Shown here piece by piece: positions 17,540-26,533 of a stretch of 32,000 bases of DNA. The stretch covers positions 270,001 to 302,000 of the forward strand of contig JASBSB010000001.1 in the NCBI GenBank assembly GCA_030149205.1, given 5' to 3'. The notes below the pieces were generated by a model, which worked only from the letters and a program-made list of their open reading frames with translations, ran no database searches and was not told where the DNA came from. Numbering within the stretch: position 1 is the stretch's first letter; each line of letters starts with the position of its first letter. The stretch comes from Candidatus Heimdallarchaeota archaeon. Its GTDB lineage: Archaea > Asgardarchaeota > Heimdallarchaeia > Heimdallarchaeales > Kariarchaeaceae. The translations under genes and the position numbers were made by a program.

Positions 17540-19324
17540 TTATTGCCCCTGTCGTTTGAACCATGATTCTAACTTTGAATGAGATATCCGAATAATCGTT
17601 GGTCTACCATGAGCACATGTCCAAGGAGAATTGCACTTAAGCAAATTTGAAAGAATTTCAGCAACTTTTCGTTCACTTACAGGGTATCCAGACCTAACTG
17701 CTCCATGACAAGCCAATCGAGATACAACACGATATTCAATTGCATTAAACTTGGAAGAGATCTCAATATTCGTGTCTGCAGTTAGAAAATCGTTAATCAA
17801 TTTATGAAGACTATCTTTGTCAAGTCTTTGGTCATAATACACAGGAACTCCATGTATCAATATTGTTGAGGTTAAGTGCTGAATACTGTATTGAAATCCA
17901 AACTTTTGAAACGTGTCCTGAAGTTCAACTAAAAGATCTAGTTCTCCTGAATTGATTGATACGGAAACTGGTTTAAGGAAGGTCTGTGACATTACTAGAC
18001 TTTCTCGATGTTCTTGATATCTCTCAAATTTGACTCTCTCATCTGATGCATGAACATCCATCAACCAAAGTTCAGAGTCTTTTTCAATTAATGCGAATTT
18101 ATTAAAAATATGTCCTAAAACTCTAAAACCTCCTTGAACAAAAACCGCCCTTGTGTGGTTGACCGAATTATTTTGAGGTGTTATCTCCTCCAAAGAAGTT
18201 TGTACAAATGATTCTCCTGGAATAACCTCTTTTGTAGAAATTAAAGGTTCATAACCTTCTTGTAAATCTATTTCTGCATTAGAAACATTTGGAGCTTTCT
18301 TATGAGGTAACTGCTGTATTTCAGATTTTTCTACCAAGGTTTCTTGAACCAATGTAGAGATTTCGTGAAAAATTGGGTCATCCTCCCTAAATCTTACCTC
18401 CAGTTTCTGTGGATGTATATTATAGTCAACAAGATTGTAATCTCCCTTCAATGATAAGATTATTACAGGGTAATTGCTTTTCAATAATTGGGACCCATAA
18501 GCTCGTTCGATTTGAGTTACCAATTCTGTATTCCTAATCAATCTACCGTTTATACTTAGATACTGAAATTTTCGGTCTTTTCTTACAAGAATGGGTTTAG
18601 AGATATACCCTGTTATTTTCCAATATCCTACATTGCCTCTGATTGGTACTAATCCTGAGGTGATTTCTGGACCAAAAACATCAAACAATACTGCTAAAAG
18701 CTCTTTTCTGGTTGGACTCTCCAATACGCTTGACACTGTATTCCCCTTCCTTTCACCTACTGTGAAATGAATATCTGGGTAGGTTAAACAGAAATGTGTC
18801 ATCACAGTTAAGATGTGTCTCTTCTCTGTAGCAACTGATTTTAAAAATTTTCTCCTAGCAGGATAGTTATGAAATAATCCACTTATCTCAATTCTGGTTC
18901 CTTTGCTCATTCTTACCTGGTTTTGAGAGATAATTCGCAGATTTTCCATTATGAGCTCACTGCCAAATTCTTCTGACTCAACCTTTGATCGTATTTTGAC
19001 ACGAGAAACACTTCCAATCGATGAAAGTGCTTCTCCTCTAAACCCTAGGGTTGAAACATTATGAATATTATCTTGAGTAATTTTACTTGATGTATGAAGT
19101 TCAAATGCAAGTTTTAATTCTCCTGGCTGTATTCCTTCACCATTATCCTCAACAATCATCCTGTCAATGCCACCATTCTCCAGAATAACCGCAATTTTTG
19201 AAGCATGGGCATCAATGGAATTTTCAACCAACTCTTTTACCGCATCGGCTGGACGAGTAATTACCTCACCAGCTGCGATTTGCCTTATTATTTCTTCTGG
19301 AATTAGATGGATCTTATTTGCCAT
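17540..19324 (-). CDS. mutL: DNA mismatch repair protein MutL (endonuclease-motif type)
   Basis: IAAGEVITRP, VKELVENSIDA, DNGEGI, TLGFRGEALSSI, YNIHPQKLEVRF; CTD motifs DVHASDERVKFE, ACHGA, CAHGRP, WFKR. Start ATG 19324 has GGTGA 8 nt upstream and overlaps the mutS 3' end. Confidence 0.97.
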   Translation of the reverse strand: MANKIHLIPEEIIRQIAAGEVITRPADAVKELVENSIDAHASKIAVILENGGIDRMIVEDNGEGIQPGELKLAFELHTSSKITQDNIHNVSTLGFRGEALSSIGSVSRVKIRSKVESEEFGSELIMENLRIISQNQVRMSKGTRIEISGLFHNYPARRKFLKSVATEKRHILTVMTHFCLTYPDIHFTVGERKGNTVSSVLESPTRKELLAVLFDVFGPEITSGLVPIRGNVGYWKITGYISKPILVRKDRKFQYLSINGRLIRNTELVTQIERAYGSQLLKSNYPVIILSLKGDYNLVDYNIHPQKLEVRFREDDPIFHEISTLVQETLVEKSEIQQLPHKKAPNVSNAEIDLQEGYEPLISTKEVIPGESFVQTSLEEITPQNNSVNHTRAVFVQGGFRVLGHIFNKFALIEKDSELWLMDVHASDERVKFERYQEHRESLVMSQTFLKPVSVSINSGELDLLVELQDTFQKFGFQYSIQHLTSTILIHGVPVYYDQRLDKDSLHKLINDFLTADTNIEISSKFNAIEYRVVSRLACHGAVRSGYPVSERKVAEILSNLLKCNSPWTCAHGRPTIIRISHSKLESWFKRQGQ

Positions 19325-22067
19325 TGGGGGTTTCACCTAAGAGTGACTTCAGGTCATTTAATATTTCTAACGCTTTTAATGGTGTGATATTGTCAAGGGA
19401 AAGGTGAGATAGAGTTGCTAATATTTCGAGTTCTTCTGGTGACCTGAGTAATACATCCTTTTTATGTTTGGAAACTCTTTTCTTTTCAACTAAGGGTCGG
19501 CCTAGGCTTGATCCACCAAAAAAATCGACCAGGGATCCTTGTTTTTCCTGTTCTTCAGACACTCGTATGACCTGAGATGCAAATGATTCTGATTTTTCTG
19601 TTGGAATAACAGAGACTGATTGATTCTCCATTTGGTGCAAAAGAAATCTTGCACGAAGAATGATCTCTTTAGGTATTCCTGCTAGTTTTGCTACTTCTAC
19701 CCCAAAACTCTTGTCAGAGGAACCCTTAAAGAGAAGATGGTCAAAAATTGGTTTTTCACCATCAAAGTGTATTTGAAAATGAAAGTTCATACATCTATCT
19801 AAATACCCTTCCAAATCAGCTAATTGATGATAATGAGTGGCAATCATTGTGAGTGGACGGTTTTGGTGATTGTGGAGAAATTCTGCCAAAGACCATGCGA
19901 TTGCCAAACCATCATAAGTTGATGTCCCTCGTCCAATTTCGTCTGCAATTATTAGAGATTGTGAGGTACAATTATTCACCATATTAGCAACATCAAGCAT
20001 CTCAACAAGGAATGTGCTTTGCCCTGCGATTAGGTTATCTGAAGCTCCAATTCGGGTGAAAATTCTGTCAAATATTCCCAGTCGAGCCTTTTTAGCTGGA
20101 ACAAACATACCAATCTGAGACAATATACTGATCAATGCTAACATCCGGAGCAGTGAGCTCTTTCCACTAAAGTTTGGACCCGTGATAATGAGTAGTGTTT
20201 GCGATTTCTTATCCATGAAAATATCATTGGGTACATACCTCCCACCATCCAAAAAGGTCTCGATTATGGGATGCCTTCCCTGTTCAATATAAACTTCAGT
20301 CTTATTACTGAGCTCTGGTTTTACATAAGCATTTGTGAGTGAAATATATGAAAAAGTGGATAAAACGTCCAACTCTGATATTATCGATGACAATTCCTGT
20401 AGTCTGCTAACATGCTTTGACAAAGAGCTTAGAAGATTATTATAGAGCTCTTCCTCCAATTGGATTATTTCTATCTCAGCGTTTAATATATCATTTTCCC
20501 AATCCTTGAGTTCATCAGTAACAAATCTGACGGCATTTACCATTGCCTGTCTCCGGATATAGTTTGATGGAACATTATTTTCGTTCTTCCTTGTGACTTC
20601 GATATAGTAACCAAGTTGTCTGTTTTGTTTTATTTTTAAACTTGTAATTCCGGTTTGCTCTATTTGACTTTCCTTGTATCTCTCTATCCATTTTTCCCCT
20701 TCACTTAACACTTGAACCAGACTAGCTAATCGATCGTTAATGTTTTGATTAATGACTCTACCCTCTGATGGTGAACTTGCTGGATTATTCACGAGATATT
20801 TTTCTATCATCGTTTGAATATCTAAGCAAGTGTCAAACTTTGGCAGATAATTATCAAGACACTTGTAAGTTGTACTATGTGACTCCAGAATTTCTAATAA
20901 TTCTGGTGTCCGGCTCAAACTCATAGATAGTTGAATCAGCTCTTTGGGTTTAGCGATTCCTAAGGAGATACGTGTAGAAATCCTCTCTATATCTGCCATA
21001 TGAGTCAATAGATTACGGGTCTTATGTTGAATAATCTCTTCTTTGATAAAAAATTCCACCAATAAGTGTCTAGTCTCAATCTCTTTACTATTTAATAGTG
21101 GACTGTGAATCCATTTTCTGAGTCTACGCCCACCCATAGGAGTACAAGTTTTATCCAGCAAACCAACTAGTGTACCATATTCTGTTTTATCTTGATTATT
21201 TTCAAACAGCTCCAAACTTTTAATTGCTGTTCTGTTTAAATTCATGTGAACTTCAGGTTTAATCAGCTGAATTTTAGAGATATTAGATAACTCTCTCATC
21301 TGAGTCTCTTCAAGGTATCTGAGTAAGGCTCCTGAACTCCCAACTACCTCTGAATCAACCTTTATTCCATATCCTTCAAGTGATTTTACTTGAAAATGAG
21401 TTGTTAAAAGTTCATTTGCTTCAGTGTAATTAAACCAAAAGTCGGCACGAAGTGTTAATGTTTCATTTTCATCTAGTTTTCTACCCAACAACAACTTCAA
21501 GGAATTTTCAAGTGAATCTGGGACTAAGTACTCAACCGGTGAGTACCTATCAATGATAGTATGGAGATTTTCGAAATCATTTTCCTCCAGATTTTTAACC
21601 ATAAACTCCCCACACGATAAATCGGCTAAAGAAACACCAATTTCTTTTGTTGTCGAGTTCCAACTAAGTGAACAAATATAATTGTTTTTTCCCGAGGTCA
21701 GTAACTCCTCCTCCACAAGTGTACCACGTGTTACCACTCGAGTGATACCTCTTTTAACAACCCCCTTAACAGATTTCGGATCCTCTAGTTGGTCTGCAAT
21801 AGCAACTTTGTAGCCTTTGTTAACCAGTCTACCGATGTAAGAATCAACACTCCGAAAAGGTACCCCTGCAAGCGGATGATCACCATCCCCTAGAGACCTG
21901 GAGGTTAAGACAATATCTAACTCCTTTGAACCAACAACAGCATCCTCATAGAATAGTTCATAAAAATCCCCAACCCTGCAAAAGAGAATTACGTCTTCAC
22001 CTAGCTCTTTTTTCATCTGAACCCATTGCTTCATCATAGGTGTAGTTCCGATCTTATCGTAATCCAT
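19314..22067 (-). CDS. mutS: DNA mismatch repair protein MutS (MutS1, bacterial type) with C-terminal PIP box
   Basis: TPMMKQW, RVGDFYELFYEDA (mismatch-binding Phe-x-Glu), ITGPNFSGKSS, RIFTRIGASDNL, STFLVEM, DEIGRGTSTYDG, ATHYHQL, SFGVEVAKLAGIP; ATG 22067 preferred over TTG 22070. Confidence 0.97.
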   Translation of the reverse strand: MDYDKIGTTPMMKQWVQMKKELGEDVILFCRVGDFYELFYEDAVVGSKELDIVLTSRSLGDGDHPLAGVPFRSVDSYIGRLVNKGYKVAIADQLEDPKSVKGVVKRGITRVVTRGTLVEEELLTSGKNNYICSLSWNSTTKEIGVSLADLSCGEFMVKNLEENDFENLHTIIDRYSPVEYLVPDSLENSLKLLLGRKLDENETLTLRADFWFNYTEANELLTTHFQVKSLEGYGIKVDSEVVGSSGALLRYLEETQMRELSNISKIQLIKPEVHMNLNRTAIKSLELFENNQDKTEYGTLVGLLDKTCTPMGGRRLRKWIHSPLLNSKEIETRHLLVEFFIKEEIIQHKTRNLLTHMADIERISTRISLGIAKPKELIQLSMSLSRTPELLEILESHSTTYKCLDNYLPKFDTCLDIQTMIEKYLVNNPASSPSEGRVINQNINDRLASLVQVLSEGEKWIERYKESQIEQTGITSLKIKQNRQLGYYIEVTRKNENNVPSNYIRRQAMVNAVRFVTDELKDWENDILNAEIEIIQLEEELYNNLLSSLSKHVSRLQELSSIISELDVLSTFSYISLTNAYVKPELSNKTEVYIEQGRHPIIETFLDGGRYVPNDIFMDKKSQTLLIITGPNFSGKSSLLRMLALISILSQIGMFVPAKKARLGIFDRIFTRIGASDNLIAGQSTFLVEMLDVANMVNNCTSQSLIIADEIGRGTSTYDGLAIAWSLAEFLHNHQNRPLTMIATHYHQLADLEGYLDRCMNFHFQIHFDGEKPIFDHLLFKGSSDKSFGVEVAKLAGIPKEIILRARFLLHQMENQSVSVIPTEKSESFASQVIRVSEEQEKQGSLVDFFGGSSLGRPLVEKKRVSKHKKDVLLRSPEELEILATLSHLSLDNITPLKALEILNDLKSLLGETPNGK

Positions 22068-22130
22068 CAATAAATGAACTAGATTAGGGTGTATTTAATT
22101 AATTTCTATAGAAAATCGTTTTCTGTGAAC

Positions 22131-23504: not shown

Positions 23505-23644
23505 GGTATGTTGTCACACTTGAACAATTCAAAATAATTAAATAAAGTGGAAACAAAAGATATTTTTGTTTAGGTTGGTTATTTACCACACGAAAGTATA
23601 GTATAAGTTAAATGAGTATTGATGTAATGGAACTTACTCAGTCT

Positions 23645-23650
23645 GGTGAT
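23645..23650 (+). promoter_or_regulatory. Shine-Dalgarno-like motif GGTGAT preceding the proposed ATT start of rpo5
   Basis: GGTGAT 4 nt before ATT 23655; GGTG-type motifs also precede mutL and mdh in this window. Confidence 0.5.
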
Positions 23651-23654
23651 ATAG

Positions 23655-25022
23655 ATTAGTAATGCTAGCATTCTAAAGGAAATTATTGACGATAATGAAA
23701 CTAAAATATTTACACTCTTTGATGTAGAGAAAGGAAGACTTTCAATTGAGGAAAGACAGGGTGATAGGAGTGTATTTTTAGAAGTTAAAGTATTTACAGC
23801 TGATGCGAGACTCAAGGGTATTCTTTGGTTTTTTGGAGATAATAGAGCTTATATTGAAGACATTAGAAACCTAAAGGCTAGAAAAGAGAGTCAGAAAGTA
23901 GATATGATTCTGATAGCTAAGGGAGGAACTACGGCAGCTGGGAGTAAAATTCTAAAAGCTTCGAAGGTTAAGTTAATCAAAGACCTAGACACTGTCAAAA
24001 AGAAGAGTTCGAAAAAATCAAAAACCAGCAAGAAAAAATCAGGAGAAAAAAGTAACCTCCAAGTTGAAGAAGATTTTCTCGATGAGATTCCCAAATCAGA
24101 TTTAATTGAAAAGGGAATGAACCTTGTCAAAACTAGAGAACCTGAAAGCATTAAAGTGACAAAAGTTAAGGATTATGAAGAAGCGTTTGATGTTAAGGGA
24201 TTTTCTTCAACAGCTGATTTATTAATTGTATACAGGACCATCGAAAAAAACCCAGTAGGAGTAAAGGAAATTAGAAAATTCCAATCGTATCTTGAGGAGC
24301 ACGAAAATGTAGCTGCCGGGATCATTGTACCAGACAAATTTACAACTGCAGCTAAAAGAGATGGACAAAAAGCAAAGATTACCCTGATCTCTTTAAAAGA
24401 GGAGAAAGAAACAGCAATTTCTCCAGAAATTGAGTACTTGACAGAACGGTTGATTAGAGGAGCAATTGAAATTCTAAAGTACCGAGGATACAAAATTTTA
24501 CCTGAAAAAAATAAGGCATATGACCCATTAAGAGCAGGAAGCGAAAAACTGGGTAAATACATTATCGCTGAGGAAAGTTCAGAAAAAACATTAGTGCTAG
24601 TACCCCAAGATGAAGTTGTTAGAGTTGCTACGGTCCGAACCATGAAGGAACAGATGGATCACCTAGGTATCTCTTCTGGTATACTCATCCCCATCAAAAG
24701 ATTCACGTATACTGCAGATAGAGAATGTCAACTCTCTGGAATCGTCCCCTTACGTAAAAATCACCCAGTATTTAACATCTTCAACAATGGCCTCGTTCCA
24801 GAACATGTAATTCTTGATAAAAAAGCAACAAGAGAGGTTTTAAAGAAGTTCCATAGTAAAATTCACCAAATCCCAAAAATATTTGATCGAGATCCAGCTG
24901 TATCCATGTTGGGTGCAAAAGAAGGTGACTTGTTAGAAATTAGGAGAGGGATAGATTCAAAATCCTATCGTATAGTTATTCCAACACCAGGTGTTGATAG
25001 AGTAGAGACGGACGAAGATTAA
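23655..25022 (+). CDS. rpo5: RNA polymerase subunit Rpo5/Rpb5-like protein with an Rpb5 jaw domain and two extra restriction-endonuclease-fold domains
   Basis: C-terminal assembly domain (GLVPEHVIL...IPKIFDRDPAVSMLGAKEGDLLEIRR..SYRIV); Rpb5-N signature RLIRGAIEILKYRGY. Frame is open from 23655 (previous in-frame TAG 23652-23654); ORF track start ATG 23904 cuts the first domain. Confidence 0.75.
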   Translation: MSNASILKEIIDDNETKIFTLFDVEKGRLSIEERQGDRSVFLEVKVFTADARLKGILWFFGDNRAYIEDIRNLKARKESQKVDMILIAKGGTTAAGSKILKASKVKLIKDLDTVKKKSSKKSKTSKKKSGEKSNLQVEEDFLDEIPKSDLIEKGMNLVKTREPESIKVTKVKDYEEAFDVKGFSSTADLLIVYRTIEKNPVGVKEIRKFQSYLEEHENVAAGIIVPDKFTTAAKRDGQKAKITLISLKEEKETAISPEIEYLTERLIRGAIEILKYRGYKILPEKNKAYDPLRAGSEKLGKYIIAEESSEKTLVLVPQDEVVRVATVRTMKEQMDHLGISSGILIPIKRFTYTADRECQLSGIVPLRKNHPVFNIFNNGLVPEHVILDKKATREVLKKFHSKIHQIPKIFDRDPAVSMLGAKEGDLLEIRRGIDSKSYRIVIPTPGVDRVETDED

Positions 25023-26533
25023 ACGATTATTGAATTTGATTCCATTTCTATTGGCTTATCCAACCCCACTAATTCAAGTAGAGTGGGTGAAACGTTCGAC
25101 AAACCTTCGTGTTCCTTTAATTTGATAGCATTGTTATGGTTGAATATAATGAAGGGAACTGGATTTGTTGTATGAGCAGTGTGTGGTTTCCCATTTTCTA
25201 ACATCTTCTCTGCATTTCCATGATCTGCCGTCAGAAGAAATTTATAATCGTTTTTAATACACGCATCAACCACTTTCCCAATAACTTCATCAGTAATTTC
25301 AACAGCTTTAACAGTTGCATCAAAGTTTCCTGTATGACCTACCATATCGGGTGCTGCCACATTAAATACGATAAAATGATACATACCGTTCTCAATTGAC
25401 TCAATAACTTTTTCTCCAATCTGTCTGGTTGACATTTCTGGTACTAAATCATAAGTTGGTACATCTCGACGACTTGGGATTAGTATACGATCTTCGAGTG
25501 GAAAAGGTTCTTCTTTTCCCCCGTTAAAGAAGTATGTAACATGCGCATATTTTTCAGTTTCCGCTATATGGATTTGTTTAAGGTTAGAGGAGGAGAAAAC
25601 CTCAGCAATTGGATTCTTAACATTTGCTGAGGGAAACAGAATATGGACGGGAAGCCCTTGCTCATATTCTGTCATTGTTGCAAAAAACAGGTTGGAAATT
25701 TTTATTACATCAAACTTATCTGGTAGCACAAACAGTTTTGTTAACTGTCTGGCTCGATCGGGTCTAAAATTAAAGAATATGACACCATCACCATTTGAGA
25801 CTGTCCCATCTAAATCGCATAGTATTGGTTTAAGAAATTCGTCTGTTTCTCCCTCTTGATATCTATTATTGATCTCATCGACACAATTTTCAATAACACT
25901 GGTTCTTTTTGAAGTTAGCATAGAATATGCCAGTTTGGTTCGTTCCCATCGAGTGTCTCTATCCATAGCATAAAACCTACCAACTATATCTGAAAGATAC
26001 ACGTCCTTGAGGGAGGAGGTAAATTCTAATAATTCAGAAATATAGATCACAGCACTTGTAGGAGGGACATCTCGCCCATCAGTAAATGCGTGGATAAAGA
26101 TTTTGTTTGGACAATTCTGTCTTGCAAATTTGACCAAAAACTTAAGGTGGTTAATGTGACTATGTACCCCTCCATCACTTACCAAGCCGAAGAAATGGAG
26201 ATTACCACCTGATTGTTTAACATGCTCTATTGATTGGGTTAAAGCTGTATTAGTTTTGATTTTTCCTGATTTGATGCTTTGATTAATTTTTTCATAACTC
26301 TGAAATTCAATTCGTCCAGCTCCCATAGTAAGATGACCAACTTCACTGTTTCCCATAACCCCATTGGGAAGGCCAACTGAATTACCGGATGCTGATAATT
26401 CTGTAAAAAGGCTATCATTAACAAGTCGATCATAATTCGGAGTTTTTGCATGATAAATCGCGTTTCCTTCTATCTCTTTGCTGATACCAAACCCGTCAAT
26501 AATCATTAAAACAGCTTTTTGAACACTTTTCAT
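25019..26533 (-). CDS. gpmI: 2,3-bisphosphoglycerate-independent phosphoglycerate mutase (bacterial-type iPGM)
   Basis: IIDGFG, GVMGNSEVGHLTMGAGR (catalytic Ser), SDGGVHSH, DGRDV, GRFYAMDRD, NFRPDR, AETEKYAHVT, PDMVGHTG, TADHGNAE, HTAHT. Confidence 0.97.
   Translation of the reverse strand: MKSVQKAVLMIIDGFGISKEIEGNAIYHAKTPNYDRLVNDSLFTELSASGNSVGLPNGVMGNSEVGHLTMGAGRIEFQSYEKINQSIKSGKIKTNTALTQSIEHVKQSGGNLHFFGLVSDGGVHSHINHLKFLVKFARQNCPNKIFIHAFTDGRDVPPTSAVIYISELLEFTSSLKDVYLSDIVGRFYAMDRDTRWERTKLAYSMLTSKRTSVIENCVDEINNRYQEGETDEFLKPILCDLDGTVSNGDGVIFFNFRPDRARQLTKLFVLPDKFDVIKISNLFFATMTEYEQGLPVHILFPSANVKNPIAEVFSSSNLKQIHIAETEKYAHVTYFFNGGKEEPFPLEDRILIPSRRDVPTYDLVPEMSTRQIGEKVIESIENGMYHFIVFNVAAPDMVGHTGNFDATVKAVEITDEVIGKVVDACIKNDYKFLLTADHGNAEKMLENGKPHTAHTTNPVPFIIFNHNNAIKLKEHEGLSNVSPTLLELVGLDKPIEMESNSIIV

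Follow-up and report, generated by a model that had tools for sequence, protein, structure and literature searches.

A candidate archaeal RNA polymerase subunit Rpo5 with a eukaryote-type jaw and two additional jaw-like domains

We have analysed a gene for subunit Rpo5 (RpoH) of RNA polymerase that lies in a stretch of 32,000 nucleotides from a Candidatus Heimdallarchaeota archaeon (assembly GCA_030149205.1, contig JASBSB010000001.1, positions 270,001 to 302,000; hereafter the window). The rpo5 reading frame occupies 23655-25022 on the plus strand; it comprises 455 codons followed by TAA and is open from directly after a TAG at 23652-23654. The product is probably the single, essential Rpo5/RpoH of the Heimdallarchaeial (LC_2-like) RNA polymerase, with an orthologue of the eukaryotic Rpb5 jaw (domain D3) and two catalytically dead duplicates (D1 and D2) that would act as binding modules. 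An original prediction made from the sequence had proposed that this Rpo5/Rpb5 combines a jaw of eukaryotic type with two more domains resembling it, and this architecture is borne out by Pfam matches, a jaw profile and structural models.

Domain organization and predicted structure

From the N-terminus, the protein is composed of D1 (residues 1-115; 23655-23999), the most diverged of its jaw-like PD-(D/E)XK-fold domains; a disordered Lys/Ser-rich linker of 29 residues (116-144; 24000-24086), in which a basic Lys/Ser run is followed by an acidic patch; D2 (145-250; 24087-24404), a jaw paralogue; D3 (251-366; 24405-24752), the Rpb5-type jaw; and the Rpb5_C/RpoH assembly domain (367-455; 24753-25019), assigned from Pfam, Foldseek and the loop alignment. 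All are encoded on the plus strand. The motif that had been reported to occur three times (YIEDIRNL, GVKEIRKF and RVATVRTM) is present in the translation of 23655-25019, as are RLIRGAIEILKYRGY before the third copy and the linker sequence KKKSSKKSKTSKKKSGEKS after the first domain. The repeat itself is backed by hhalign and by cross-matches of hidden Markov models (HMMs), which are described below.

Pfam Rpb5_C matches residues 373-432 with an expectation value (E) of 1.8e-14 and 53.7 bits, the cut-off being 23.5. Mrr_cat matches residues 196-248 in D2 (E 1.7e-9, 38.2 bits against 21) over profile positions 57-109 of 115, which is the C-terminal half only, and NA-iREase1 matches residues 306-359 in D3 above its cut-off (E 1.1e-6).

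An AlphaFold2 (AF2) model of the full protein, calculated from a family alignment of 19 sequences, has a predicted local distance difference test score (pLDDT) of 76.8 and consists of three alpha-beta3-alpha-beta-alpha-beta units, a disordered segment at 116-144 (pLDDT <50) and an Rpb5_C globe. A separate model of D1-D2 gave a pLDDT of 83.8, and D1, at about 79-95, has the same order of elements. D1, D2 and D3 are thus all predicted by modelling to have the restriction endonuclease core fold, the fold that had been expected of D1 and D2.

At the strand-3 position of the catalytic (D/E/Q)xK motif, located from the model strands and the hhalign registers, D1 has WFF, D2 has VYRT and D3 has LVLVP; all three domains therefore lack the motif. 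The description of D2 as Mrr-like without a catalytic motif was correct, and the lack extends to its two neighbours. D2 keeps the strand-2 acidic residue D179.

In a Foldseek search with the full model, the first 36 matches are full-length Rpb5 chains, including that of African swine fever virus (ASFV); 1dzf aligns with E 5e-12 over about 210 columns. These are followed by archaeal Rpo5 chains from RNA polymerase structures, with template modelling (TM) scores of 0.73-0.78, and then by EndoMS/NucS. In VIA-align comparisons D2 resembles AF1548 (Z 9.8), NucS (8.6), EcoT38I (8.3), plant Rpb5 (7.5) and ASFV Rpb5 (6.8). D1 matches BstEII, BsaWI, Cfr10I, VRR_NUC and Bax1, mostly proteins of the same fold, at Z values of 5.4-6.6, a range that is merely suggestive. 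Foldseek matches of the D1-D2 model to acetyl-CoA carboxylase and APOBEC3G were dismissed as two-domain coincidences (root-mean-square deviation 17-20 Å).

The third domain and the eukaryotic Rpb5 jaw

The profile of the full-length family is collinear with Arabidopsis NRPB5 over residues 5-195 and with Schizosaccharomyces pombe Rpb5 over residues 15-200. For the jaw by itself, we used an alignment of 28 sequences from at least 13 Asgard families that contains no assembly domain and has the D3 of the window as its first row. Compared with the PDB, this profile matches human RPB5 residues 3-116 (E 1.4e-10), the plant protein (2.8e-9) and the yeast protein (3.2e-5); it found no nuclease there, and its further matches were to unrelated proteins at E 0.012 and weaker. 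Helix 1 of D3 carries R277-G278-Y279, and RGY or RGF predominates in the Asgard jaws. The DRGY of Rpb5 is invariant in eukaryotes, and R26E is lethal in yeast (PMC1802627). Judged by sequence comparison, D3 and the N-terminal jaw of eukaryotic Rpb5 are in all probability orthologues.

Pfam Mrr_cat matches 26 of the 28 Asgard jaws and Rpb5_N matches five (E ≤ 0.01, best 1.3e-5). The Asgard jaw therefore bridges Mrr_cat and Rpb5_N, and the proposed link between Mrr-like domains and the Rpb5 jaw holds. When full-length one-jaw forms were used as queries, the best 120 matches were proteins of prokaryote metagenomes only, the few named ones being from Thorarchaeota; a jaw-only word-index search for longer proteins returned six proteins and was uninformative.

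Origin of the two additional domains

With hhalign, D1 is related to D2 (E 4.8e-6) and D2 to D3 (E 1.8e-5); direct comparison of D1 with D3 gave no significant result. The D2 HMM cross-matches D1 (about 1e-4) and D3 (1e-5 to 1e-7) in every family member when searched with HMMER. In a tree of 44 domains, the D3 domains of family f1, to which the window protein belongs, and of family f4 form a clade (100/99) that nests among jaws from the one-jaw proteins of other Asgard families. The D1 and D2 domains, the D2 of f4 included, group together (85/98) on long branches, a placement that comes with a warning of long-branch attraction. From these relationships we read D3 as the ancestral jaw and D1 and D2 as probable internal duplicates, old and fast-evolving.

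The two domains might instead have been taken from a separate Mrr-type nuclease gene, with no duplication of the Rpo5 jaw and perhaps with some nuclease activity retained. Pfam does label D2 as Mrr_cat, the long branches hold D1 and D2 apart from D3 and from the single jaws, and D2 retains E162, D179 and R194. However, the D2 profile also matches Rpo5 proteins with a single jaw from other Asgard families, with a best E of 6e-15, and among PDB sequences its seven best matches are all Rpb5, at sub-threshold values (best E 0.039); D1 found nothing among the same sequences. An exhaustive search of 1.84 billion protein representatives with D2 yielded nine proteins, none a typical Mrr nuclease. Six are members of the Rpo5 family, five of them with Rpb5_C and one a partial sequence with the D1-D2-D3 layout of the family; the others are two small iREase-like proteins and one false match to a repeat protein. 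Strand 3 without (D/E/Q)xK also speaks against a captured nuclease. We consider capture improbable and retain internal duplication.

Evidence against the assignment

A number of observations weigh against the reading of this protein as a polymerase subunit with an Rpb5-type jaw. Rpb5_C and Mrr_cat, which the original prediction had named for an HMM scan together with Rpb5_N, were found above their cut-offs; Rpb5_N itself, at residues 306-334 (E 0.088), reaches 13.9 bits and stays below the threshold of 27. D3 alone, represented by family f1, matches only Rpb5 in the PDB, at E 0.03 at best. The predicted TM scores of the models (0.36-0.47) mean that the geometry between domains is not confidently predicted. 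Family median net charges are +1 for D1 and 0 for D2, and such near-neutral values therefore give no preference for DNA binding over protein docking. The assembly domain has lost its S.TAG loop, it scores 56.5 bits with the NCBIfam equivalog PRK09570 (subunit H), short of the cut-off of 83, and its residues 377-378 (24786-24791) lie in NNGLVPEH as compared with NHxLVPEH, with Asn378 replacing a family-invariant histidine that is equivalent to yeast H147. Finally, the frame has no canonical start codon, there being no in-frame ATG, GTG or TTG upstream of Met84 (23904).

Assembly domain and gene copy number

Most Asgard lineages have the S.TAG loop, but in families f2 and f3 it is replaced and in f1 and f4 it is shorter by four residues; the shortfall against PRK09570 fits this four-residue deletion. 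In yeast Rpb5, the quasi-invariant residues H147, P151, D182, R200 and R212 make critical contacts with Rpb1 (PMC1802627). By motif alignment, four of these five correspond to P382, D413, R431 and R439, which are invariant in the family. Asn378 occurs in the window protein alone within the family, and the same sequence is found in a second assembly.

The missing loop had been noted in the original prediction, and is real; the idea built on it, that of a specialised paralogue outside the core polymerase, is not borne out. The deletion and Asn378, the low equivalog score and the separation of rpo5 from rpoB would all suit such a protein. Yet the genome (3.3 Mb in 12 contigs, 93.5% complete) has a single match to Rpb5_C and no separate canonical rpo5, each relative searched has one such gene, and the deletion is common to all members of f1 and f4, which have no other copy. 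The deletion is therefore a trait of the lineage and no mark of a paralogue. We find a paralogue very hard to credit, and keep the assignment to the core enzyme.

Start codon and upstream sequence

The frame of 455 residues that had been put forward is indeed open over 455 codons, with the reservation that it begins with ATT at 23655. In the absence of an upstream in-frame ATG, GTG or TTG, a standard listing of open reading frames (ORFs) gives only 372 residues from the ATG at 23904, and the public gene call, also of 372 residues, begins at Met84 and cuts D1. We regard the 83 codons upstream of Met84 as coding since relatives align with the protein from residue 1-3 to residue 451 at 41-55% identity, 19 of the 24 family-invariant residues of D1 are located before Met84, a sign that D1 is under selection, and Met84 sits half-way through the D1 fold of the model. 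Translation must start upstream of Met84.

The ATT at 23655 aligns with the ATG of congeners: the window reads ATTAGTAAT, and the two congeners with a complete 5' end read ATGAGTGCG and ATGAGCGCG. A Logan contig from an independent assembly (run SRR23576960) is identical to the window at 141 of 141 bases, ATT included, and the codon is therefore no artefact of one assembler. A Shine-Dalgarno-like GGTGAT (23645-23650, plus strand) stands 4 nt before the ATT, where it may assist initiation; motifs of this kind precede four of the 25 gene starts checked in the window, rpo5 among them.

Approximately 40 nt upstream of rpo5 is a conserved block of 20 nt, CATAG(T/C)ATAAGTTAAATGAG (23597-23616, plus strand), which looks promoter-like and contains the TATA-like TTAAAT. 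It is the same in three congeners in which the flanks have diverged, and it occurs once in the window. A scan for promoters and terminators of bacterial type was uninformative. An ATG within the block, at 23612, opens an upstream ORF (uORF) of 15 codons, the TAG stop of which overlaps the ATT of rpo5 (ATTAG). In one congener the uORF ends in ATGA across the main start, and in the second the uORF and the main ORF share a reading frame. Coupling of termination and reinitiation is possible at this overlap. The likeliest start is the ATT at 23655, and either GGTGAT or a coupling with the uORF stop that overlaps it would aid initiation there.

If the region upstream of Met84 were untranslated here, the product would be a protein of 372 residues with a decaying D1. 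The lack of an in-frame ATG, GTG or TTG before 23904 and the length of the public call fit this, but the 83 codons have remained open with all 19 family-invariant residues kept, initiation at Met84 would cut the D1 fold mid-way, and both GGTGAT and the uORF stop are placed at the ATT. We judge a 372-residue product highly unlikely and favour initiation at the ATT. Recoding of TAG, which would permit a GTG start, is unlikely because TAG terminates five of 24 ORFs in the window. A +1 frameshift from an upstream ATG was rejected because congeners carry a plain ATG at the homologous codon.

As for the window in general, a Shine-Dalgarno-like motif is missing from most of the 25 gene starts, which instead show an AT-rich stretch resembling a TATA box at most 30 nt from the start codon; this suggests mostly leaderless or short-leader mRNAs. 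The rpo5 gene, with its upstream GGTGAT, is an exception to this pattern.

Neighbourhood and distribution

The rpoB gene is on another contig. As neighbours, rpo5 has a HEAT-repeat gene, DUF2797 and mutS/mutL, together with an iPGM gene that converges on it (25019-26533, minus strand); the stops of rpo5 and iPGM overlap by 4 nt (25019-25022). No terminator-like hairpin was found between the rpo5 and iPGM stops. The mutL and mutS genes, both of bacterial type, are adjacent minus-strand genes (17540-22070) with an overlap of 23 nt.

All 11 family-f1 genomes carry the three-domain form at full length. In family f4, D2, D3 and the assembly domain are preceded by an unassigned N-terminal domain of about 125 residues and then a Lys-rich linker; compared with D1, D2 and D3 by hhalign, this N-terminal domain is collinear with E values of 0.01-0.07, which are not significant. 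The remaining families of the order have one jaw. A single jaw match was obtained for each of 77 genomes among the 83 of the class and, across the phylum, a jaw match occurs in 143 of the 301 Asgard genomes sampled; within that sample, families f14 (0 of 92) and f8 (1.4 Mb) had none. Sixteen places from at least ten families were sampled, and at every one of them ORFs of 164-246 residues join a jaw to Rpb5_C. The generalization that a typical archaeal Rpo5 is only the small assembly domain, from which the original prediction started, therefore fails for Asgard archaea. One relative carries a name in the databases, 'Heimdallarchaeota archaeon LC_2, RNA polymerase subunit H', with 538 residues.

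Other variations were observed among the relatives. Four three-jaw Rpo5 proteins (P0005, P0006, P0024 and P0015) have long C-terminal tails of KKxTKKA-type repeats that are histone H1-like, in alignment columns 520-626, where the window protein has no tail; some of the tailed proteins also have acidic D/E runs. In family f11, which is probably Thorarchaeia, two loci, L039 (G275:C138) and L044 (G227:C46), hold two complete two-domain rpo5 genes in tandem (187-205 residues), and several f11 genomes show two matches.

Proposed role

Binding of Rpo5 to Rpo1 is a textbook pairing and, by homology with the archaeal and eukaryotic enzymes, the Rpb5_C globe would anchor the protein on Rpo1. In the same way, D3 would line the far end of the cleft and form a guard rail for downstream DNA, the role ascribed to the N-terminal domain of Rpb5 (PMC3479171). 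In Sulfolobus, the space beside Rpo5 where the Rpb5 jaw sits is filled by Rpo13, which binds downstream double-stranded DNA (PMC3479171). D1 and D2, presumably dead as enzymes, would hang on the flexible Lys/Ser-rich tether of 29 residues. Most likely they serve as binding modules without catalytic activity and extend to the downstream duplex, or to chromatin or factors on it, ahead of the polymerase, and it is in this sense that we infer an 'expanded DNA-contacting jaw', to use the phrase of the original prediction.

D1 and D2 may, on the other hand, be mainly docking platforms for proteins (initiation or elongation factors, assembly chaperones or chromatin proteins) and no extension of the DNA-contacting surface. 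The near-neutral charge of both domains is seen across the family. Two papers present the eukaryotic Rpb5 jaw as a hub for TFIIB, RAP30, HBx, TIP120 and RPAP2 (PMC13257274; PMC8140126). Further, the same fold is found in the TBP-interacting protein Tk-TIP26 (VIA-align Z 5.8). Inactive restriction-enzyme folds, however, often retain DNA binding, and the conserved strand-2 acidic residue and several basic residues of D2 fit contact with nucleic acid equally well. A principal role in protein docking is, in our opinion, a possible but somewhat unlikely alternative to modules that contact DNA.

Significance

Structural papers and reviews describe the N-terminal domain of Rpb5 as absent from archaea and as a eukaryotic addition that guides downstream DNA (PMC3479171; PMC3906176; PMC1802627). 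Our literature searches, recent Asgard structure-mining papers included, turned up no description of an Rpb5-type jaw in an archaeon. The window Rpo5 is a clear counter-example to the notion of a eukaryote-only jaw, and it comes from the archaeal group closest to eukaryotes. With this jaw and two dead-nuclease copies in a Heimdall archaeon, a supposed eukaryotic invention is therefore present, and elaborated, in archaea. The truncation of the public gene call at Met84 has hidden this architecture in the databases.

The sequence also ties the Rpb5 jaw to Mrr-type nucleases and offers a natural test case for extra jaw modules on a polymerase. A broader scenario, to which we would give slightly less than an even chance, is that the Rpb5 jaw is archaeal in origin. 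An inactivated Mrr-type nuclease would have been fused to RpoH and inherited by eukaryotes from an Asgard ancestor; in the LC_2-like lineage it would have been tripled, and the tethered set of jaws would grip DNA or chromatin in front of the polymerase, or sense it. If true, this would be an RNA polymerase architecture without described precedent.

Comparison with known systems

The closest counterpart is eukaryotic Rpb5 (RPABC1/POLR2E; PF03871 and PF01191; yeast structure 1DZF; chain E of polymerases I, II and III), which has the same order as D3 and the assembly domain: a dead PD-(D/E)XK jaw with RGY and then the Rpb5_C globe, collinear in sequence and in fold. The window Rpo5 differs in its two additional jaw-like domains and N-terminal Lys/Ser linker (455 residues compared with about 210), in the deleted S.TAG loop, in a match to Rpb5_N below the Pfam cut-off and in its archaeal host with a single polymerase. 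The one-jaw Rpo5 of other Asgard archaea (180-250 residues) has a jaw orthologous to D3 and the same globe, mostly with the S.TAG loop retained, whereas family f1 alone has the triple form.

Canonical archaeal RpoH/Rpo5 (77-84 residues; 1HMJ, 4QIW_H and 7OK0_H) has a homologous globe (E 2.7e-22 to Methanocaldococcus jannaschii subunit H, TM about 0.75) and, like the window protein, is the sole such subunit in its genome. It has no N-terminal domain, whereas the window Rpo5 has about 366 added residues; its gene usually lies upstream of rpoB-rpoA, in contrast to the window rpo5, which is on a different contig from rpoB.

Mrr_cat (PF04471) and NA-iREase1 (PF22722) have in common with the window jaws the fold and a conserved C-terminal half, namely a V-G-V-x-x-R helix and then F-T-x-x-A. 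Unlike them, D1-D3 have no (D/E/Q)xK on strand 3, and their fusion partner is a polymerase subunit in place of a modification-sensing or NACHT module. The Rpo13 of Sulfolobus would be a functional analogue of what we propose, but it is an unrelated small helical protein and a separate subunit.

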